Shown here: positions 2,213-22,297 of the stretch, in pieces | Position numbering within the stretch: position 1 is the stretch's first letter | Layout of the letters: the number at the start of each line of letters is the position of its first letter | Assembly (NCBI GenBank): GCA_002433595.1 | Contig: DJIL01000014.1 | Coordinates: forward strand, 1 to 22,297 | Origin: a bacterium UBP8_UBA6595 | GTDB lineage: Bacteria > Margulisbacteria > Marinamargulisbacteria > UBA6595 | Length of the DNA stretch: 22,297 bases | Direction of reading: 5' to 3' | Notes under the pieces: generated by a model | Told to the model about the DNA's origin: nothing | What the model saw: the letters and a program-made list of their open reading frames with translations, nothing else | The model's database searches: none | Position numbers and translations under genes: made by a program

Positions 2213-2927
2213 AATTTCGGATGCTAATTAAAGAGTGTGTTGCCCAAATGCCCCCAAAATGCCGGCAATAGGTTTCGGCTAAGGCAGAGAGTCGTCGAGG
2301 GGTCCACAATCCACGGGCGGTGGCCATTGAGGTGCCAGTATATTTAATTGTTTTGAGTAAGTCTGTGATGGAGGGATAAGCCACCGATAAGCGGGTATGG
2401 TCAATAACAAGCGGGCCAAATTCGGGGCGCAAATCGCGCACATAATCATCGACTGTTCGAAATGGGGTATTCGGTAGGGGCGTCCTTTGGGGCCAACAAA
2501 TACGAAGGGCTTGGTGTAACTCTGTGTAGGTTTCGGGGCCAAACATATGAATATTAAACCCGCCGTGGGGGGCCAGGTTTTTTCGAATAATCGGCGCGAT
2601 TGGGCCCGTTAGCCAGTGAAGGGTTCCGTGGCTACTAATGAAATCGACACGATCAGGGTGTGTGTAGGTTTCGGCAGAGGCAATCTGCCAGCGGATGGGG
2701 GCGGCATACTTTCGAGCCTGGTCAATCATTTGGGACGATTGGTCCACGCCAGTGATGATGCTTTGGGTATAACGGCTGTGTAGTTTGAGTGTATTTACGC
2801 CAGTGCCACAGCCAATATCTAAAATTTGGTCAGGGGCTCTGGTTGGGTATGTAGGCAAAACGCGGGTAAAAAGGGCCTGTTGTGCGGTACTAAACTGGGT
2901 GTATGTAGGGGCGGCTGTGTCAAACAT
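2205..2927 (-). CDS. bioC: Malonyl-ACP O-methyltransferase (class I SAM methyltransferase)
   Basis: SAM motif I (ILDIGCGTG), and it aligns colinearly with BioC (the HGTLHWL and ELHQAL regions). It sits between bioH and bioD. Confidence 0.75.
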   Translation of the reverse strand: MFDTAAPTYTQFSTAQQALFTRVLPTYPTRAPDQILDIGCGTGVNTLKLHSRYTQSIITGVDQSSQMIDQARKYAAPIRWQIASAETYTHPDRVDFISSHGTLHWLTGPIAPIIRKNLAPHGGFNIHMFGPETYTELHQALRICWPQRTPLPNTPFRTVDDYVRDLRPEFGPLVIDHTRLSVAYPSITDLLKTIKYTGTSMATARGLWTPRRLSALAETYCRHFGGIWATHSLISIRNYD

Positions 2928-3570
2928 GGGTATTGCGATGACGGCACAGTTGATGCTGGAAGTCTGTGTTTAGAAAGGGGAAGTGCCCGGTGTTAATCAG
3001 TTGGAGCTCAGTGTTTAGAGCGGCTGCCAACCCGCGTGTCTCTTGAATGGGTGCAATGGCATCGTACTGCCCATGATACAAGGTTAAATTGGGCCACTCA
3101 GCCAATAGGGACGTCTGAAACGATTGGGTGAGTACGGACAGACCGGCTAAAAGGGCCTCTTTGGGCCACATTGCGTGACACTGTGTGTGAAAATAGGTAT
3201 GGAATTGGCGGTATTCCTGGGCATTGTGAAAACAGGTTTGGTGAAAGGTGCTAAGAACAGATTCCGGGTGCTTAGCCATTGTTTTTTGAAAGCGGGTAAT
3301 GCTTTTTTTGGGGTAACAAGGGGCCACGCCAACAAGATAGATGTGGTGTAAGTACGGGGCCAAGTCGGGTAGCCATTGGGATAACATGAGTCCGCCCATC
3401 GAAAAAGCGAGGCAGTCCATAGGGGCGTGCATGCGCGCATACGCTACCCATGGTTCGGGGTCTTGGTGCCAGCTTGATTGGTACCCTACATCGGGTATTC
3501 TGTAACCGGGGGAATACTGAAAGCAGTCGGGAGAAAACCCCCATCCGGGGAGTATTAGCAAGGGCCTCAT
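2920..3570 (-). CDS. bioH: Pimeloyl-ACP methyl ester carboxylesterase (alpha/beta hydrolase, BioH-like)
   Basis: LLILPGWG oxyanion region, nucleophile elbow AFSMGG, and C-terminal LYHGQYD...GHFPF, all BioH-like. I take the ATG at 3570..3568, which forms an ATGA overlap with the bioF stop. The ORF-track start at 3588 is a GTG. Confidence 0.65.
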   Translation of the reverse strand: MRPLLILPGWGFSPDCFQYSPGYRIPDVGYQSSWHQDPEPWVAYARMHAPMDCLAFSMGGLMLSQWLPDLAPYLHHIYLVGVAPCYPKKSITRFQKTMAKHPESVLSTFHQTCFHNAQEYRQFHTYFHTQCHAMWPKEALLAGLSVLTQSFQTSLLAEWPNLTLYHGQYDAIAPIQETRGLAAALNTELQLINTGHFPFLNTDFQHQLCRHRNTHV

Positions 3571-4688
3571 GTCTGTATTGAGTGCCACGCAGTGGCCAGT
3601 TGATCAATATCAGACAGCCGATGATTAGCGCGTAGGCTAATTCGAATTAAATCGGTGTGTTTGGGTACCGTTGGGTGTCGAATGGCTGTAGCAATGATCC
3701 CCTGCTGAGCCAAGGCATGGGTATAAGCAAGCGCTTTTTCAGGACAGCCAACCGGTAATGGGACAATGTGATGCTTAGCGGTCGGGGAACAACCCGTGGG
3801 GAGGGTCGTATGACAATAGCGTGTAAGAGTCGCCAATGCCAGTTGGTGCTGGCTATGGTTTTGGGTAACTGTTGCTAGATTGACCCCAGCAACAAAGGGC
3901 GGTAAGGCTGTTGAGTAAATAAACGGTCGGCATCGATTAATGAGGTAGTCGCGTAGCTCAGGCGAACCGCCAATAAAGGCGCCCATACTTCCCCAAGCTT
4001 TGCCAAAGGTTCCAATGATAATATCAACAGCATCCAAAATATGGTGTGCGTCAGCGAGCCCCATGCCGGACGGGCCGTAGCAACCCACCGCGTGGGCTTC
4101 GTCCACAATCAATTGGGCCTTGGCATCGCATTTAAGTTGAATTAATCGCTCAAAGTTGCACGAAGCCCCCGTCATGCTGAATAAGGATTCGGTGACAATG
4201 AATAATCGATTGTAGTTTGCACGGTGCTTCTGAATTAAATACCCTAAATGATCATAATCAGTATGCCGATAGCGTTTAAACGTAGCGGCGGATAGCCGAG
4301 CGCCGTCAATTAGGCTGGCATGACAGGCACGATCTGCTAAAATCAAATCAGAACGCTGAGGGAGGCATCCCAATAGGCCAGTATTGGCATGGTAGCCAGA
4401 GTTTACCACTAATGCAGACTTGCCCAGACGTATAGAGAGGGCCGATTCTAAATCGCATAGCGTGGGGTATTGCCCACTTAATAACCGAGAGCCAGTGGCC
4501 CCTGCGCCATAATGGTTGGCGGCAGCTAACCCTGCTTGAATGCGGGAGTAATCCGTTGTTAATCCTAGATAGTCGTTGGTATTAAAGACAATTAATGACG
4601 CATCAGAGCCGGAGACTTGATCGGGAAGTGTGCGGTATGAATGGGTGTCTTTAAGTTTAGATAGCGTATGATTTAAAAAGCGATCCAA
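3567..4688 (-). CDS. bioF: 8-amino-7-oxononanoate synthase (PLP-dependent)
   Basis: Colinear with BioF/AONS family proteins (NDYLGL, FSMTG, and the TFGKA PLP-lysine region). The only possible start is the TTG at 4688..4686, 3 nt after the ftsZ stop. Confidence 0.85.
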   Translation of the reverse strand: MDRFLNHTLSKLKDTHSYRTLPDQVSGSDASLIVFNTNDYLGLTTDYSRIQAGLAAANHYGAGATGSRLLSGQYPTLCDLESALSIRLGKSALVVNSGYHANTGLLGCLPQRSDLILADRACHASLIDGARLSAATFKRYRHTDYDHLGYLIQKHRANYNRLFIVTESLFSMTGASCNFERLIQLKCDAKAQLIVDEAHAVGCYGPSGMGLADAHHILDAVDIIIGTFGKAWGSMGAFIGGSPELRDYLINRCRPFIYSTALPPFVAGVNLATVTQNHSQHQLALATLTRYCHTTLPTGCSPTAKHHIVPLPVGCPEKALAYTHALAQQGIIATAIRHPTVPKHTDLIRISLRANHRLSDIDQLATAWHSIQT

Positions 4689-6075: not shown

Positions 6076-6468
6076 ATGGTTCATAAAATTTACATTGTAG
6101 TTTTGGTTTCTTTAGTCCTAACGGGGTGTGCCGGTCGATCCGCCATGCATCGCGAATCGACAGTGGCCGGCCGTGCGTTGCCTAAGCCCGTAATGCATCA
6201 AATGATTCACAAGCATGTTAAAGAAGGAACCACACAGCGTGCAGATATAGTGGCTACTTTTGGATACCCCAGCAGCACGTTTCAATCGGAACGTGGGCGA
6301 ACTGTTTGGTACTACCCAGGTATGGGGTACCACGCTAATGCCAAAAAAAGACACTTTAAACTGCATCAGGCCACCGATCCTCAGGCCGTCGATCTGGTGA
6401 TCATCTACGGGGATGATTCGTTTGAAAACACCGTGGCTCAGGTGCGGATAATGCCCGCACACTTATAG
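6076..6468 (+). CDS. Small outer-membrane lipoprotein, BamE (SmpA/OmlA)-like
   Basis: Lipoprotein signal peptide with lipobox LVLTGC. A G-T-x-x-x-V-x-x-x-G-P...W-Y-Y pattern (KEGTTQRADIVATFGYPSS...TVWYY) resembles the BamE fold motif. Confidence 0.45.
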   Translation: MVHKIYIVVLVSLVLTGCAGRSAMHRESTVAGRALPKPVMHQMIHKHVKEGTTQRADIVATFGYPSSTFQSERGRTVWYYPGMGYHANAKKRHFKLHQATDPQAVDLVIIYGDDSFENTVAQVRIMPAHL

Positions 6469-10885: not shown

Positions 10886-11392
10886 TCAGTGGCTATTGCG
10901 CACACGCCGCATACAATAGTGTACCAGGGTTGCGCTGCCGATGACAGTCTCAAGTGACGGAGAATCGGGGCGGTCGGGCATTGGGACCGGCATGGATTCT
11001 GTGTGATTGGCATAGCTAACGCCAATATAGAAGCATCGGTTAGTAGTGTTGTAGTCGCTGAGTGCTAGCCCCAAGGATGTGGCATACACATGCCGGAGCT
11101 GCTTCGCTAAATACTGAGTGAACGGTTCACTGGAGGTTCCGTGCTCGCGAATAATTTGAGGTGACAGGCCCAAGGGGCGAATCAGCACGCTGGGGTGATG
11201 AATGGTCGTTGTGGCAGCCATGTGACGGGGTAAGTGGTGAGACATCCAGTAGCTAAATAAGCCATGGGCACCGATATCGGCAAGGCTAACCGTGAGCCCT
11301 ACAAAGTCTGCGGCGAGCTGATCCACAAGTGTTTCCGTTTGCTTAGCTTGAATTTCTGTTAAAATTGATTCAAATGCGTGCAAATTACGCAA
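10886..11392 (-). CDS. CinA C-terminal domain/PncC-like protein (divergent)
   Basis: Colinear with the CinA C-domain/PncC, including GLxxxWxS and REHGTSSEP (compare the conserved AQHGAVSEP region). The conserved ESCTGG block is replaced by LADIGAHG. It has a TTG start, lies 6 nt after the metK stop, and sits immediately upstream of recA as pncC does in E. coli. Confidence 0.55.
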   Translation of the reverse strand: MRNLHAFESILTEIQAKQTETLVDQLAADFVGLTVSLADIGAHGLFSYWMSHHLPRHMAATTTIHHPSVLIRPLGLSPQIIREHGTSSEPFTQYLAKQLRHVYATSLGLALSDYNTTNRCFYIGVSYANHTESMPVPMPDRPDSPSLETVIGSATLVHYCMRRVRNSH

Positions 11393-15419: not shown

Positions 15420-16499
15420 ATGAATCGGTGGCCGGGCGTTGTTGAGTATTATAAGCAGTACCTCCCGGTTACGGATCAAACGCCCATTGTATCGTTAAAT
15501 GAAGGGGCTACCCCGTTAATTCAGCTGAAGCGGTTGCCGAGTAAATTTGGGGTCCATGCCGATTGGTATGTGAAATTTGAAGGGCTTAATCCAACCGGGT
15601 CTTTCAAAGATCGGGGTATGTGTATGGCTATGAGTAAAGCCGCTGAGGCGGGTTCTAAAATCGTTATGTGTGCCTCAACGGGCAATACATCAGCAGCGGC
15701 GGCGGCATACGCTGTGCGCGCGGGCATGCGGTGTGTGGTGGTGATTCCGGAAGGGAAAATTGCTCTGGGTAAGTTATCGCAAGCCATGATTAAGGATGCA
15801 CTGGTATTGCAAATTCGAGGAAACTTTGATGATGCTTTGCGCATAGTGCGTGATGTGTGTGAGACGCACCCGATAGCGTTGGTTAATTCGGTTAATCCAT
15901 ACCGAATTGAAGGCCAAAAAACAGGCGCTTTTGAAATTGTTGATCAGTTGGGTGGGCGCGCACCCGATTACCACTTTATTCCCGTTGGCAATGCCGGAAA
16001 TATATCGGCATACTGGAAGGGCTACACAGAGTACTATGAGCACAAAAAAATTACGCAATTGCCCAAAATGATGGGGTATCAAGCTGAGGGCGCGGCTCCG
16101 TTGGTGCTGGGTCATGTGGTGAATACGCCAGAAACAGTGGCTACAGCCATTCGCATTGGCAACCCGGCTAGCTGGCATTTAGCGGAAGCGGCTCGGGACG
16201 AGTCCAAGGGTGTTATTGAATCAGTCACGGATGATGAAATTACCCAAGCCCAGAAATTATTGGCTGCTGAAGAAGGTGTTTTTTGCGAGCCGGCCTCGGC
16301 TGCGTCTGTTGCGGGCGTCATTAAGTCTGTTCAGCATCTGGGGCGGTCGTTTGAGTCTGGGCAAGTTGTGGTGTCGGTGTTAACCGGGCATGGGTTAAAA
16401 GATCCCAACCGAGCCATTGATATTGTGCAACAAGAGCCGGTAGTGGTGAGCAACAATCATGAAGCCGTTGTTTCAGCGCTAAAGCCATTGGGGTTATAG
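15420..16499 (+). CDS. thrC: Threonine synthase (short-type, PLP fold II)
   Basis: The PLP-lysine motif [11 protein letters not shown] is diagnostic of ThrC. The ATG is 3 nt after the upstream stop. Confidence 0.85.
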
Positions 16500-16501
16500 G
16501 G

Positions 16502-17644
16502 ATGAAGTACATCGTCTGTCTAGGTGACGGTATGTCTGACTGGCCCATTGAGGGTTTAGGGAACCAAACACCCTTAGCGTATGCTAAAACACCCAACATG
16601 GATGCGTTGGCAGCCCAAGGTCGTGTGGGGGTAGTGGATACGGTTGAGGCCCCATTTTACCCAGGCTCGGATGTGGCGAATATGGGTATTTTAGGGTACG
16701 ATCCTGCGGAATCTTACACAGGTCGTGCGGCAATTGAATCCGCAGCTATGGGTGTTGATATTCCCAACGGCTACAGTGCATTTCGATGCAATTTAGTCAC
16801 AATAAGCAATGAGACAATGGTTAGCTTTACAGCGCATCATATTGAAACGGCTGCGGCTGCGCGGGTTTTGGATGCCTTAAACCAACACTTTGATGGCCGG
16901 GTGCAGTTTTATGTGGGGGCCAGTTATCGGCATATTGCGGTAATGCCGGGTGCCTATCCCGATATTGTTTGCACACCTCCGCATGATTTAACAGACAAAC
17001 CGGTGGTGGGTCCATCTGAGGGGGGGGCAGCTGTTATCCAAGCCCTAATGACTGAGGCTCAAGCGGTTGTTCAGTCAGTGGGTACAGGGGCAACAGATAT
17101 TTGGCTGTGGAGTCCGGGCACGGCGGTCAATCTGCCGACGTTTCACGTGAAACATGGCTTGACCGGGGGTGTGGTATCCGCCGTGGACGTTGTGAAAGGG
17201 TTGGGCTGTTTAATGGGTATGCACGTGCCAGATGTGCCGGGGGCAACGGGGTTTTTAGATACAAATTATGCAGGAAAATGGGCCGCTGCAACGGCTATCT
17301 TAGAAACCAGTGATTTTGTTTATGTGCATGTGGAGGCCCCGGATGAATGCGGGCATTTGGGCGATGTTGACAAAAAGGTACAAGCGATTGAAGACTTTGA
17401 TGCACATATCATAGGGCCTGCTCGGGCGTATTTAAAGGCCAATCCGGATACAAGGATCATGGTGCTTCCAGATCACGCAACCCCGTGTGCGATTAAGACC
17501 CATTCGCGAGAAGCCGTTCCGGTGGTGCTGGCCGGTCTGGGTATTGCATCCAATGGGGCAACGAAGTATTCGGAGGCTGTGGCGGTTCAAACGGATTGGC
17601 ATGAAACGACGCCCTGGGCATTGTTTAAACAGCTGATTTGTTAA
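16502..17644 (+). CDS. ApgM-family (cofactor-independent phosphoglycerate mutase-like, alkaline-phosphatase superfamily) protein; proposed non-orthologous homoserine kinase
   Basis: The N-terminus CLGDGMSDWP...TPNMD and overall colinearity match the archaeal-type iPGM/'proposed homoserine kinase' family, which commonly sits next to thrC. Here it starts 2 nt after the thrC stop. Confidence 0.65.
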   Translation: MKYIVCLGDGMSDWPIEGLGNQTPLAYAKTPNMDALAAQGRVGVVDTVEAPFYPGSDVANMGILGYDPAESYTGRAAIESAAMGVDIPNGYSAFRCNLVTISNETMVSFTAHHIETAAAARVLDALNQHFDGRVQFYVGASYRHIAVMPGAYPDIVCTPPHDLTDKPVVGPSEGGAAVIQALMTEAQAVVQSVGTGATDIWLWSPGTAVNLPTFHVKHGLTGGVVSAVDVVKGLGCLMGMHVPDVPGATGFLDTNYAGKWAAATAILETSDFVYVHVEAPDECGHLGDVDKKVQAIEDFDAHIIGPARAYLKANPDTRIMVLPDHATPCAIKTHSREAVPVVLAGLGIASNGATKYSEAVAVQTDWHETTPWALFKQLIC

Positions 17645-17706: not shown

Positions 17707-18465
17707 ATGCTGCCAATAATGATGCGCGCTCGGTTTTCTGACATTCGGAAATCATTTTTGCCTCATACAGCAGATCAAATTAAGCCTGTTTCTCATATGG
17801 CGCATACGCCCGATGAATGGTTGGTCCGGTTTCATGCTATTTTAATGCGAGCGGGTGTTCAGCTAACCCCTTTGTATGGCACCTGTTTGGGATTTTTTCG
17901 AGATAATTGCATTATTCCAGGAGATACCGATGCGGATTTTGGAATTGCCCTCTCGGACTTGCCAGCGGTTCGAGCGTGTGTTCCGGAGTTGCTGGCAGCC
18001 GGTTTTTATATTTCCGGTCGGGGGAATTATCAACTCACGTTTAGCATGCCCAACAGCTCATTTTATATTGATATTTGGCCATACAAGGCCTTGAATTTCC
18101 CCCTAACGATGCTGGGGCACCGATGGCTCTGTGATCATGTGTATTACAAAGCTGATTTTTTTTCAGAGTGTCAGCCGTTTAATTACAATGGCTGTACGTA
18201 TTATTTGCCCGCACGGTGTGAGATGTATTTGGAAATGGTATATGGATTAGACTGGAGAACCCCGGTTTCTGGGTGTTTTTCAGGACCTAGAGGCTTAATA
18301 TCCCAATGGATTAATTGGCCATTTATTGATTTTCCGGTGCCATCTGCCTTTTCAGGGGAAGCCCATTTGGGCACCTACAAACCCTGGGCATCTAAACTAT
18401 TAAAAAGAGTAGTTCCCAATGCTCGTATTACACAATTGTTCAAACATCCGGAGGTTAAATCATGA
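17707..18465 (+). CDS. LicD-family phosphotransferase (transfers phospho-/phosphono-alcohols from CDP/CMP donors to glycans)
   Basis: Colinear with the LicD/fukutin family: [11 protein letters not shown]...[11 protein letters not shown] (compare GTLLGAVRH...IPWDDDIDI), YIDIWPY, and a C-terminal YL...[13 protein letters not shown]. The stop overlaps the ppm ATG (ATGA). Confidence 0.7.
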
Positions 18466-20072
18466 ATTTACAAGCAACCACAACAAAACAGCGAAAAACC
18501 ACGCAATTGCGTGCCTTATTTCAACGCTCAGAGTTAGCGTTTTTGATGGAGGCCCATAATGGTTTGTCGGCACGATTGGTCGAAGAAACAGGGTTTTCGG
18601 GCATTTGGGCCAGTGGATTAGCCATTTCAGCGAGCATGGGCGTTCGAGATAACAATGAAGCGTCCTGGACTCAGGTGGTGGATACGTTAGAATTTATGAG
18701 TGATGCCACTTCAATTCCTATTTTATTGGATGGGGATACAGGGTATGGTAATTTTAACAATGTTCGTCGGTTAATTAAAAAGCTGGAACAACGCGACATT
18801 GCGGGCGTGTGTTTAGAAGATAAATTGTTTCCAAAAACCAACTCGTTTTTAAATGGTGAGCAGCAAGAGCTGGCCGATGTGTCGGAGTTTTGCGGTAAAA
18901 TAAAAGCGGCTAAAGACACGCAATCAGACCCCGATTTTTCAGTTGTAGCCCGCATTGAATCGTTTATTGTGGGCATGGGTTTAAATGAGGCATTGGATCG
19001 AGCGTATGCGTACGCCAATGCCGGTGCCGATGCCATTTTGGTTCACAGCAAAAAAGCGGTGCCTGATGATATTGTGGCGTTCATGCAGGCGTGGGATTCG
19101 CCGGTTCCGATTGTTATTGTGCCAACCAAGTACTATGCAACACCGACGGATCAGTTTCGTACCATGGGAATCTCCACGGTAATTTGGGCTAACCACAGCA
19201 TTCGGTCCGCTATGACTGCCATGAAAACAACAATGAAAACTATTTATGATACAGAAACGCTTAAAGATGTCGAACCTAAGATTAGTTCGGTATCGGATAT
19301 TTTTCGGATTCAAGGAGCCGATGAACTAGCGGAGGCCGAAACCCAATATTTGCCGGGTTACAATACCCAACTAGCGGGCATTATTTTAGCGGCAGGTCCC
19401 TCACGTATTGACGGGTTTTCAGGGCCCAAAAGCATGCTTTTAGTTCATGGGAGATCAATTTTAGATCATCAAGTGGATCATTTGGAGCGGTTTGGCATTG
19501 GTCATGTAACCGTGGTGCGTGGGCATGATAAAGCGCAGATGGTATCGGATCGGGTGTCATTTGTGGATAATGATGCATACGCAACAACGTCAGAGGTTTA
19601 CTCATTGGCATTGCTTGCGGATCAGTTGGACACTGCCGCCGTCATTAGTTATGGGGACGTGGTATATAAGCATTATTTTATTCACGAATGTTTAGCTCAT
19701 TCAGGGGATGTCGTTATTGTGGTGGATGTGAACTGCCCCGCGACAGACTCTTGGCGAGACTACGTTCAAGCGAGCGAGGCTTTTGATGCGTTACGCATTC
19801 AGCAATCGCCTACCCTGATTCAAATGGCTCGTTCTATAAGTGCCGATCAAATTTCGGGTGAGTTTGTGGGGCTGATGAAAACAACCAAAACGGGCAGTCG
19901 TGCCATTCAAGCCGCCCTCAGATCTATCGAGTCATCCACCTTAGCCCGTATGACAATGCCTGAGTTTTTAACGGCCTTAAGCCAGACGATTCCGGTGCAT
20001 ATTGTGTATGTTCAAGGGGGATGGGTGGATGTGAATACCCTATCCGATTGGACGGCAGCGGCTGACGTTTAA
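18462..20072 (+). CDS. ppm: Phosphoenolpyruvate mutase fused to a C-terminal LicC-like nucleotidyltransferase domain
   Basis: The N-terminal domain is colinear with PEP mutase and carries the diagnostic EDKx5NS motif ([10 protein letters not shown], nt 18816..18845). The C-terminal domain, from about nt 19368, is nucleotidyltransferase-fold ([10 protein letters not shown]..., [13 protein letters not shown], and a C-terminal [10 protein letters not shown]). A GGAGG SD is 8 nt upstream. Confidence 0.85.
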
Positions 20073-21206
20073 ATGATTTCAGCGCATGCATTTTGCCACG
20101 CATTAGCTGGCCGGGGATTTGATTGCTATACGGGTGTTCCGTGTTCGTTTTTGACCGGTGTTATTAATGTTGCCATGGCGGAATATACCTATATTAACGC
20201 CACCAATGAAGGCGATGCTGTTGCGATTGCCGTGGGCGCGGCTTTGTCAGGCAAGCGACCGGTTGTGCTCATGCAAAACTCTGGTTTGGGCAATGCGGTA
20301 TCACCCCTAACGTCATTAACGCACCCATTTGGTGTACCGGTTCTAACGGTAATTAGTTGGCGGGGGCAGCCAGGTATTCAAGATGAGCCCCAGCATGCAC
20401 TTATGGGGGTCATTACCCCCGATATGGCCCAGTTAATGGGTATGGAAACGATTATTTTTTCCGCGTCCGACTTGCCGGATCAGCTGAATGCGATTGATGC
20501 GGCTTTGGGTCGTGGGCAATCCGTGGCCTGGGTGATTCCGAAGGGGGAGATTGAACCCGTTAAAACTCCGGGTCGGTCCCAGCCGGTACCTCATTCAGGG
20601 GCTATCCAGACCCAATCCGCGCACCCAGGGGTGGTGGGAAGCCGAACCGATGCGTTGAAAACCATTGTAGCGGCGCAACCACCCCACAGTGCGGTGTTGG
20701 CAACCACCGGCAAAACGGGGCGGGAATTATTCACATTAGGGGATCGGGATAATCAGGTCTATCAAGTGGGGTCTATGGGGTGCATAGGGGCGCTGGGTTT
20801 GGGTATTGCGTTGGCCAAGCCGGCATGTCGGGTAATCGTCATTGATGGCGATGGTGCGGCCTTAATGCGGTTGGGATCGTGGGCATCCGTGGGATACTAT
20901 AAGCCCAAGGGGTTCTTGCATATTGTCTTAGATAATGGGGTGCATGATTCAACCGGAGGCCAAGATACGGTGGCGGAGTCTGTTGATTTTGTGGCTTGTG
21001 CACAGGCCATGGGGTATCCGGTGTCAAGGACTGTAGCCAGTTTGGATGAATTGGCTGATCAGATTCAGCAGTGGGCCGCTGAGCCTCAATTAACACTGCT
21101 GCATGTCGCAATTACGCCGGGGAGCCCGGCAACGTTGGGACGACCCACGTGTACACCCGCCGAGGTTGCGGCGCGATTCAAACACTATTTGGCCAACGGG
21201 TTATGA
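20073..21206 (+). CDS. ppd: Phosphonopyruvate decarboxylase (ThDP-dependent)
   Basis: About 375 aa, the typical Ppd size, with ThDP motif GDG...N (VIVIDGDGAALM...LDNGVHDSTGGQ). The ATG immediately follows the ppm stop. Confidence 0.85.
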   Translation: MISAHAFCHALAGRGFDCYTGVPCSFLTGVINVAMAEYTYINATNEGDAVAIAVGAALSGKRPVVLMQNSGLGNAVSPLTSLTHPFGVPVLTVISWRGQPGIQDEPQHALMGVITPDMAQLMGMETIIFSASDLPDQLNAIDAALGRGQSVAWVIPKGEIEPVKTPGRSQPVPHSGAIQTQSAHPGVVGSRTDALKTIVAAQPPHSAVLATTGKTGRELFTLGDRDNQVYQVGSMGCIGALGLGIALAKPACRVIVIDGDGAALMRLGSWASVGYYKPKGFLHIVLDNGVHDSTGGQDTVAESVDFVACAQAMGYPVSRTVASLDELADQIQQWAAEPQLTLLHVAITPGSPATLGRPTCTPAEVAARFKHYLANGL

Positions 21207-22297
21207 TCCGAACAGCGGTTATTCTTGCGGCGGGGAAAGGGTCGCGATTGCGTCCCCACTTGGATCCCCAGTTGCCCAAAGGGGCGCTAACAATCGGGGC
21301 CTGCGCGATGATTGAACGTAGCATTCAGCAATTGCTTGCCCAAGGGATTGACCATATTATTGTGGGTACGGGGCATGGGGCAGATTGGTATGATGCTTTA
21401 GCCACACGCTATCCGGTAACCTGTGTGCCCAACGTGGCGTATGCAACCACAGGCAGCATGGCAACCTTGCGTGCCGTTGTGGCGGCCACCGGCATTCAAT
21501 CTCCGTTGGTGCTTGTGGAGTCGGATTTGATTTATGAACAGGCGGTGCTGGGGGATCTTTTGGAGCATCCAGAGCCCAATTGTGTGTTGGGTATGCGGTA
21601 CCGGGGCTATGGCGATGAGGTGTTTATACAGGTGGATACTCAAGATCATGTGGTTGGCTTAACTAAAACAGCGCCAGCATCCGTTGAAACGGCGCCGGTT
21701 TTGGTGGGTTTAACGACCATTGGCCCGGCCTTATTGTCGGCCATGGTGGCGCACTATGATGCCGCTAAGAACCCGATGATGGATTACGAAGATGCGTTGA
21801 TAGCCGCTAATGAACCAGCGATATGCTTGATGACCGATGGGCAGGCAATGGAAGTGGATGATGCGAATCATCTAAGCATTGCTCAAACGCTCATACTGGA
21901 TATTGAATGCAACGATGCATACCCGGAGCCCAAGCGAACCGTGTTGTTAAATCCGGGGCCAGCGACAACCAGCCAATCGGTTAAACTCGCTCAAATTGTG
22001 CCGGATATTTGCCCTCGTGAGCAGGCGTTTGTTCAGGTGATGGCGGCGTGCCGGCAGCAGGTGTGCGCGTTGGCATCGGCAACATCTGAGGCGGTGGCTG
22101 CGGTCTTTTTTAGTGGATCGGGGACTGCGGCTGTGGAAGCGATGGTCAGTTCGGTGATGCCGGCGAACGGCCATGCGTTAATTATTGATCAAGGGGCGTA
22201 TGGGCAGCGCATGGCCAGTATTGCCCAGGTGCATGGCTTGGCGCATACGGTGTATTCGCCGGATCCGGTGCGGGCGTTGCCGGTATCGGGGGTTGAG
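21203..22297 (+). CDS. Bifunctional LicC-like (PntC-type) cytidylyltransferase / 2-aminoethylphosphonate:pyruvate aminotransferase, 3'-partial
   Basis: Not in the ORF track because it runs off the window. I translated it by hand: the ATG at 21203 overlaps the ppd TGA, and 365 codons follow with no stop. N-domain: MIRTAVILAAGKGSRLRP...KGAL, a canonical sugar-phosphate nucleotidyltransferase motif. From about nt 21932 the sequence KRTVLLNPGPATTSQ...FFSGSGTAAVEAM...LIIDQGAYGQRM matches class-V AEP transaminase (PhnW-like). The same domain order occurs in T. denticola Tde1415. Confidence 0.8.
   Translation, partial: MIRTAVILAAGKGSRLRPHLDPQLPKGALTIGACAMIERSIQQLLAQGIDHIIVGTGHGADWYDALATRYPVTCVPNVAYATTGSMATLRAVVAATGIQSPLVLVESDLIYEQAVLGDLLEHPEPNCVLGMRYRGYGDEVFIQVDTQDHVVGLTKTAPASVETAPVLVGLTTIGPALLSAMVAHYDAAKNPMMDYEDALIAANEPAICLMTDGQAMEVDDANHLSIAQTLILDIECNDAYPEPKRTVLLNPGPATTSQSVKLAQIVPDICPREQAFVQVMAACRQQVCALASATSEAVAAVFFSGSGTAAVEAMVSSVMPANGHALIIDQGAYGQRMASIAQVHGLAHTVYSPDPVRALPVSGVE

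Follow-up and report, generated by a model that had tools for sequence, protein, structure and literature searches.

A PntC-like domain fused to phosphoenolpyruvate mutase in a Marinamargulisbacteria phosphonate operon, and the family to which it belongs

The fusion protein and its C-terminal domain

The window analysed here is a stretch of 22,297 nucleotides (contig DJIL01000014.1, assembly GCA_002433595.1) from the bacterium UBP8_UBA6595 of the Marinamargulisbacteria, a metagenome-assembled genome (MAG), and it ends with an operon for phosphonate biosynthesis. One gene of this operon (18462..20072, + strand; 536 aa plus stop) encodes a phosphoenolpyruvate (PEP) mutase, Ppm, fused to a C-terminal nucleotidyltransferase (NTase) domain, as deduced from its open reading frame (ORF) and its matches to PF13714, PF12804 and TIGR02320. 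A full-length homologue search retrieved a 100% identical protein (P0156), annotated as 'phosphoenolpyruvate mutase [Candidatus Marinamargulisbacteria bacterium]'. The fused domain has the fold of the cytidylyltransferase PntC with an altered signature, and alignments indicate that this alteration is family-wide and not particular to the window protein.

The N-terminal half is the PEP mutase catalytic domain (18507..19322, +; aa 16-287), recognized by TIGR02320 with 387.5 bits, above the cut-off of 319.55, by PF13714 (PEP_mutase; aa 16-261, 210 bits) and by a fold match to 1PYM. It includes the motif EDKxxxxxNS (aa 119-128; 18816-18845, +) that separates Ppm from the rest of the isocitrate-lyase superfamily (Rice et al. 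2019, PMC6697681). The AlphaFold2 (AF2) model of the full-length fusion has a predicted local distance difference test score (pLDDT) of 87.6 and a predicted template modelling score (pTM) of 0.57, and its Foldseek matches are limited to Ppm and isocitrate-lyase structures, including the Ppm of the mussel Mytilus edulis (1PYM; 66% identity, TMt 0.93). An identity of 66% over the Ppm half is unusually high for a bacterium-animal pair.

The second NTase domain that an earlier note on this DNA had placed behind the mutase at 19368..20072 (+; aa 303-536 and the stop codon) is indeed present. It matches PF12804 (NTP_transf_3; aa 306-421) with 45.5 bits for a cut-off of 27 (E=1.2e-11), so that PF13714 and PF12804 follow each other, in the order read earlier, on one polypeptide with the architecture of Ppm-PF12804 fusions. 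Modelled alone, the domain reaches a pLDDT of 92.8 and a pTM of 0.90. Its best Foldseek match in the Protein Data Bank (PDB) is the PntC domain of Treponema denticola Tde1415 (6PD2; E=7.9e-18, TM 0.79, 22% identity), a cytidylyltransferase specific for 2-aminoethylphosphonate (AEP), followed by NTases of the same fold including LicC and the GMPPA/GMPPB complex 7D74. A profile-profile comparison of the Ppm-fused family with the PntC family encoded next to it gave E=5e-43. Together, the profiles and the model indicate that the PF12804 match is not due to chance.

By sequence, the best PDB match is LicC, the CTP:phosphocholine cytidylyltransferase of Streptococcus pneumoniae (1JYK; 34 bits, E=1.9e-7), with which the domain has the NDxYA...YSL and PK blocks in common. 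Unlike the window domain, LicC possesses a canonical GLGTR loop, and its VIDAD stretch aligns with ISYGD of the window. The first Asp of VIDAD, replaced by Tyr in the window, is taken from this alignment as Asp105, the residue equated with Glu104 of PntC by Rice et al. The fusion had also been described as the reverse of Fom1 from fosfomycin biosynthesis, which is misleading. Both proteins are indeed a Ppm fused to a nucleotide-activating domain, but this domain is N-terminal and of PF01467 in Fom1, whereas it is C-terminal and of PF12804 in the window (PMC6697681), where Pfam returned no PF01467 (CTP_transf_like) match in the fusion protein. As the cytidylyltransferase of Fom1 belongs to a different Pfam family, the window fusion is no simple reversal of it.

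The altered Gly-rich loop (19386..19439, +; aa 309-326) reads G-P-S-R-x6-PK. It keeps K323, equivalent to Lys25 of PntC, and departs from the PntC signature GXG(T/S)RX4-8PK with its Arg15, as the second Gly is absent. Ten residues separate AA from PK, instead of 13 in the canonical neighbours and 12-13 in most fused domains. The non-canonical GPSR reported by the earlier note is thus present, but its pairing of this Arg with the canonical one is only one of several equally possible alignments: in the alignment used here, no Arg15 is aligned and the Arg of the window falls one position earlier. This Arg is not conserved, since the closest relatives have R, K, D or N in loops of the type AAG[AP]S[RKDN]-[ILF][GD]. 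The question whether GPSR is common among active PntC homologues receives a negative answer in that form, the exact variant being confined to the nearest relatives. Likewise, AAG[AP]S is found in the window and its 10 closest relatives as a clade-level variant, in place of the family loop AAS[QR]G(x)LGxLT.

Further along the domain, VVRGHDK (19512..19532, +) carries the family-specific R353 and K357, the R353 position being Thr, Leu or Val in 94% of canonical PntCs. The two blocks expected from the first reading of the sequence were both found, namely NDxYxxxxxxYSL (within aa 369-382) and GGWVDVNT (20016..20039, +; aa 519-526). The latter retains W521 and D523 (the counterpart of Glu220) and has N525 at the Asp222 position, where Asn is also found in 10 of 10 closest relatives. 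Between these blocks, SYGDV (19647..19661, +) retains D399, equivalent to Asp106, and has Y397 in place of the amine-binding Glu104, and GEFVGLMK (19857..19880, +) is the G-E-x-x-G block common with PntC (G163-E164-x-x-G167).

In Tde-PntC numbering, the window domain therefore displays Gly11, Lys25, Arg55, Tyr104, Asp106, Arg153, Glu164, Pro196, Asp220 and Asn222, with a less certain alignment around the Arg at position 153. Compared with the PntC domain of Tde1415 (6PD1/6PD2), the equivalents of Lys25, Asp106, Gly56, Asn77, G-E-x-x-G and Trp218 are kept, whereas the conserved Arg15 is missing, Arg stands at Lys153 (Ser, Thr or Asn in the fused family), Tyr at Glu104, Pro at Glu196 and Asn at Asp222. 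If the metal-site carboxylates of PntC are, by our own assignment, Asp106, Glu220 and Asp222, the window offers Asp399 and Asp523, but Asn525 at the third position.

Residues lost and kept across the fused family

A word-indexed search with the domain alone yielded 5 matches; hence, an exhaustive HMMER search and a full-length query were used. The HMMER search returned 2010 matches, the best of which are merely 36-39% identical, and sorting them by loop separates two classes. The first is made of Ppm-fused domains, or fragments with a Ppm tail, whose loops are of the type AAS[RQ]G..LG.LT...PK or otherwise non-canonical. The second comprises stand-alone proteins of approximately 250 aa with the canonical AAGxG[ST]RLxPxT..PK. 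A canonical-like GxG(T/S)R occurs in a single one of 118 full-length fusion homologues (P0203, ...GEKLRPLT...).

Residues were compared in an alignment of 196 fused domains, 49 adjacently encoded NTases (stand-alone or aminotransferase-fused, referred to as neighbours) and Tde-PntC, whose numbering is followed; pocket geometry was deduced from such alignments. Arg15 is found in all neighbours, whereas the fused domains have Arg in 5% and Lys in 6% of cases and otherwise a gap, Glu, Gly or Ala, which leaves 175 of 196 with neither Arg nor Lys. Gly11, also present in 100% of the neighbours, is replaced by Ser in 78% of the fused domains. At Lys153, where 97% of the neighbours have Lys, the fused domains show Ser (46%), Arg (9%) or Thr (8%), and Lys in only 2 of 196. 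The position of Glu104 is Asp or Glu in 87% of the neighbours, but Tyr or Phe in 99% of the fused domains and acidic in none (0%); that of Glu196 is Glu in 83% of the neighbours, while in the fused domains it is mainly Thr, Pro, Ser or Ala and acidic in 15 of 196. The Lys153/Glu196 region is more variable than the others, and the MAFFT and hhalign alignments agree there. Taken jointly, Arg15, Lys153, acid-104 and acid-196 are all missing in 171 of 196 fused domains and never all present (0 of 196), whereas 42 of 49 neighbours possess all four.

These positions are those on which PntC depends. In Tde-PntC, less than 10% of the activity is left after each of the substitutions R15A, K25A and K153A, and the amine of AEP forms hydrogen bonds with Glu104 and Glu196 (Rice et al. 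2019, PMC6697681). What is kept in the fused family is the fold together with a ligand-site core made of Lys25, Asp106, G-E-x-x-G and Trp218. Indeed, Lys25 is found in 99% of the fused domains and 100% of the neighbours, and Asp106 in 100% of both. At the two other acidic positions, Glu220 (100% of the neighbours) is Asp in 90% of the fused domains, and Asp222 (100% of the neighbours) is Asp in 68% and Asn in 30%. The family also has conserved charged residues of its own, R353, K357, D369, D371 and E378; at the R353 position, corresponding to Thr55, Arg is present in 82% of the fused domains and 2% of the neighbours. A compensation of the lost Arg15 by R353 was considered and rejected, as the two show no anticorrelation: position 15 is neither Arg nor Lys in any of the 34 fused domains devoid of R353, and R353 is present in all 21 domains where position 15 is Arg or Lys.

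The extent of the erosion is heterogeneous according to the alignment. The loop of the fused domains counts 8, 10, 12, 13 or 14 residues, and the mean net charge of its first seven residues is +0.10, as against +1.41 in the neighbours. Fused domains from Burkholderiales (L035 and others) read VVGGY, GRWIGL and WRGVN, having lost the equivalents of Glu164, Glu220 and Asp222. These losses, the Asn222 of the window clade and the variable, near-neutral loop point to a lineage-specific mosaic erosion of the catalytic positions. Fused domains from Treponemataceae (L008, L012) retain Arg at PntC position 15 (AAARGDRLGELT).

The domain is nevertheless under purifying selection and is not a decaying relic. 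Against the closest relative, 90% identical, the ratio of nonsynonymous to synonymous substitution rates (dN/dS) amounts to 0.10 over the domain and to 0.025 over the Ppm half, with dS of about 1.15. The domain proper has 13 invariant positions across 119 sequences. In the C-terminal region scanned (aa 295-536), 82 positions are conserved at 85% or more, and the window is identical at 51 of them, including all the invariant ones; K323, R353, G354, N370, S381, G398-D399, G466-E467-F468-x-G470, W521 and D523 are part of these 51.

The operon and the neighbourhoods of related fusions

In the window, the Ppm-NTase gene belongs to a translationally coupled operon of four genes, encoding a LicD-like protein, Ppm, a phosphonopyruvate decarboxylase (Ppd) and a PntC fused to an AEP transaminase (AEPT). 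The LicD-family phosphotransferase-like gene (17707..18465, +) matches PF04991 (E=1.3e-5) and NF045866, the Mf1 cholinephosphotransferase model (E=3e-8), and its stop codon overlaps the start codon of ppm (ATGA). Ppd (20073..21206, +) scores 384.8 bits against TIGR03297, above the cut-off of 312.5. The last gene (21203..22297, +) runs past the window end; its PntC part has 136.5 bits to Tde1415 (6PD1) and TIGR03301 covers aa 247-361. The canonical loop LAAGKGSRLRP (ILAAGKGSRLRP) is located in this ORF starting at 21203, so that the two NTase domains of the cassette, with the canonical one in the aminotransferase fusion, were correctly recognized from the start.

The canonical PntC domain of the window (21203-21940, +) retains Arg15, Lys25, Glu104, Asp106, Lys153, Glu196, Glu220 and Asp222. 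The same domain has Ala for Trp218 and Pro-Val for Gly163-Glu164, unlike most neighbouring PntCs.

The gene order is the same in the closest relatives, and the PntC-AEPT orthologue of the closest long relative (L082) is complete with 594 aa. Following the Pnt logic of Rice et al. 2019 (PMC6697681), the operon genes cover the whole route from PEP to phosphonopyruvate (PnPy), phosphonoacetaldehyde (PnAA), AEP, CMP-AEP and the AEP-decorated acceptor, and the extra domain is needed at no step. In L082, PntC-AEPT is followed in the same direction by a gene for 432 aa devoid of Pfam match (L082:4971-6266, +), which may be a missing component of the acceptor side of the pathway; the equivalent region lies past the window end.

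Such fusions are abundant. With 33% of all Ppm enzymes carrying it, PF12804 is the most frequent fusion partner of Ppm, and a second NTase is often encoded one or two genes away, the characterised enzymes Ari1348 and Tde1415 being separate ones (Rice et al. 2019, Nat Commun 10:3698, PMC6697681). The unusual character that the earlier note implied for the window protein was thus not confirmed, as the fusion and the nearby second NTase are already described and the non-canonical loop is the rule in the family. Of the 120 best homologues, all approximately 530 aa long, nearly every one has the same architecture. The Ppm-PF12804 fusions in the Treponema denticola, Atopobium rimae and Olsenella uli clusters described by Rice et al. 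have the same domain order and the same operon logic as the window, with Ppd and a canonical NTase one or two genes off, the latter AEPT-fused as in Tde1415. The clade of the window differs from them in its loop, which reads AAG[AP]S[RKDN] rather than AAS[QR]G and is shorter by 2-3 residues before PK, and in the Asn at the Asp222 position. The window protein is therefore a further member of a known, abundant fusion family, with a clade-specific loop.

A genome scan located full-length fusions at 80 loci, in Bacillota, Bacteroidota, Spirochaetota, Burkholderiales and other Pseudomonadota, Nitrospirota, Cyanobacteria, Verrucomicrobiota and a Halobacteriales MAG. A canonical NTase is encoded within about 3 kb at 51 of 70 loci carrying Ppd, and a strong match to a second NTase is missing at 16 of 44 well-flanked loci. 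Among the loci without it, L042 and L003 are orphan ppm genes and ten others are minimal ppm-ppd(-aept) modules, where the 25 commonest of 104 Pfam families include no LicD or CDP-alcohol transferase. These loci say nothing on the activity of the fused domain, being orphan genes or minimal modules. An arrangement that would argue for activity, with the fused domain as sole NTase beside a CMP-dependent transferase, was looked for and found at none of the loci inspected.

Several members of the family, and one further match, deserve mention on their own. The fusion of the Halobacteriales MAG (L017:7763-9382, +) is full-length and lies beside a canonical second NTase, which suggests that the cassette was either transferred to archaea or misplaced during binning. 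P0236, a Ppm of 534 aa that carries this C-terminal domain as well (loop ILAASQGN-LGELT), is listed under the freshwater mussel Potamilus streckersoni; it could be a true animal gene or stem from bacteria contaminating the assembly. In two Chloroflexota (L038:2533-4932 and L040:11505-12983), a canonical second NTase directly adjoins the Ppm fusion and scores 248-264 bits against the canonical NTase model, far above the other neighbours; the stop-to-stop frame of L038 also matches helix-turn-helix and cupin domains, possibly a neighbouring regulator read through in a high-GC frame. Long N-terminal extensions on the high-GC fusion ORFs L026, L039 and L043 contain no extra Pfam domain and are probably stop-to-stop artefacts. 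Finally, a protein of 4282 aa (P0009) matches domain residues 190-232 in 38 separate stretches (131 bits) and stands as an unexplained repeat protein.

The phosphonate operon is immediately preceded by an apgM-like gene, which begins 3 nt after a thrC-like PALP gene (together 15420-17644, +). The apgM-like gene (16502-17644) scores 440 bits with PRK04200 (cofactor-independent phosphoglycerate mutase), 428 with TIGR02535 ('proposed homoserine kinase') and 192 with the PhpG model. Its reading as a PhpG-like phosphonate enzyme was rejected in favour of 'proposed homoserine kinase', because it adjoins the thrC-like gene and scores far higher against the phosphoglycerate mutase and homoserine kinase models; a role in the threonine pathway seems more likely. 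The remaining window is ordinary chromosome with ftsZ, recA, rny, metK, lptFG, biotin-synthesis genes and the thrC-like gene. Among these housekeeping genes, three ORFs of 222, 130 and 168 aa (2920-3588, -; 6076-6468, +; 10886-11392, -) have no Pfam match at E<=1e-4.

Possible roles of the fused domain

Judged from its residues, the fused domain is probably no longer the AEP cytidylyltransferase of the pathway, a job that would fall to the canonical PntC encoded two genes downstream. Eroded catalytic positions, a kept fold and ligand-site core and a nearby canonical NTase form together the pattern to be expected of a pseudoenzyme that still binds a ligand, for which GMPPA is a precedent. On these grounds, the favoured reading is that of a non-catalytic module derived from PntC with a regulatory or structural role, to which a probability of about 0.5 is given. 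Of the options listed in the earlier note, 'degenerate or regulatory' is thus the one that the evidence favours, a different substrate or nucleoside triphosphate (NTP) remaining as the lesser rival. GMPPA, itself devoid of catalysis, binds GDP-mannose and controls its paralogue GMPPB (PMC11228364). Its likeness to the window domain is a functional analogy: both have an NTase fold and a defective Gly-rich loop and co-occur with an intact paralogue, whereas there is no close sequence relationship between them, and the window module is fused to Ppm instead of forming a paralogous subunit, so that binding and allostery would hold here by analogy. Besides GMPPA, the large subunit of plant ADP-glucose pyrophosphorylase is a non-catalytic regulator with an NTase fold.

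In such a scheme, a pseudo-cytidylyltransferase derived from PntC/LicC would be maintained by purifying selection, and its conserved core suggests that it probably still binds a Mg-nucleotide ligand. This ligand, for instance CTP or CMP-AEP, would be held via Lys323 and Asp399, and the domain would regulate or organise Ppm, the committed step drawing on PEP. A more specific proposal, put forward tentatively by analogy, is that PF12804 on about a third of all Ppm enzymes might, instead of being a PntC, be a sensor of CTP or of the end-product CMP-AEP. It would gate Ppm, a thermodynamically uphill step, allosterically, possibly while docking on the canonical PntC, as a bacterial counterpart of the GMPPA/GMPPB pair.

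Several observations weigh against a non-catalytic module. An active enzyme would show the same near-invariance of Lys25 (99%) and Asp106 (100%) and the same Asp at the Glu220 position in 90% of the fused domains. The family-specific R353, K357, D369, D371 and E378 could, with the loop AAS[QR]G, form a rewired active site. Arg or Lys persists at position 15 in about 10% of the fused domains, those of Treponemataceae among them. The loss of one such residue does not abolish catalysis, since alanine mutants of Tde-PntC retained up to 10% of the activity (Rice et al. 2019, PMC6697681). The literature search, with subscription journals mostly outside its reach, turned up no paper in which a Ppm-fused PF12804 domain had been assayed. 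Moreover, fusions between biosynthetic enzymes are more often catalytic than regulatory.

The serious rival is a rewired but active NTase, using an NTP and a substrate other than AEP (for example a phosphonate that is anionic or has no amine, like PnPy, PnAA or 2-hydroxyethylphosphonate, or else a non-phosphonate), in which family residues replace the lost ones. It owes its weight to the invariant Lys25 and Asp106 and to the conserved charged residues proper to the family, two basic (R353, K357) and three acidic (D369, D371, E378); G-E-x-x-G, Trp218 and the Asp at position 220 are also as an enzyme would need them, and the change of the acidic amine-binding pair to Tyr and small residues would fit another substrate. 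CMP activation of other phosphonates has precedents in Fom1, PhpF and FrbH. However, the relocation of the arginine fails as described above, both metal-binding acids are also gone in the Burkholderiales members, and the pyrophosphate loop varies in length, often includes Asp or Glu and has a net charge near zero. Furthermore, neither the window operon nor the minimal ppm-ppd loci have an extra tailoring or transferase gene for a second activated compound. A rewired enzyme is rated as rather unlikely, while being the first of the alternatives to be kept in mind. That the domain is simply a redundant PntC is improbable: its best structural match is indeed the PntC 6PD2, it sits in an AEP operon and the literature uses the PntC label, but Arg15, Lys153, Glu104 and Glu196, conserved in PntC, are missing family-wide, and most extended clusters also hold a canonical PntC that would be needless if the fused domain did the same job. 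That the domain is a functionless, decaying remnant of an earlier PntC fusion, a reading to which the lineage-dependent erosion of the catalytic residues could point, is strongly disfavoured and has hardly any probability left, in view of the dN/dS value, of the invariant and dozens of nearly invariant positions across phyla, of the confident AF2 fold and of a fusion kept in many bacterial phyla and in the archaeal MAG.

For this window alone, the result is modest. Its interest lies at the level of the family: the domain labelled PntC on a third of Ppm enzymes is devoid of the residues that define PntC, which was not found stated in the literature searched. Phosphonate production is a trait of approximately 5% of microbes, and among their PEP mutases roughly one in three bears the domain (Rice et al. 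2019, PMC6697681). If the domain is a non-catalytic sensor or scaffold, annotations of 'two PntCs' per cluster would need correcting, experiments could directly address how the committed step of phosphonate biosynthesis is controlled, and bacteria would possess a widespread pseudoenzyme derived from the last soluble enzyme of the pathway itself. If it is instead an active rewired enzyme, it would suggest that cell-surface phosphonate pathways include a CMP-activated intermediate not recognised so far.

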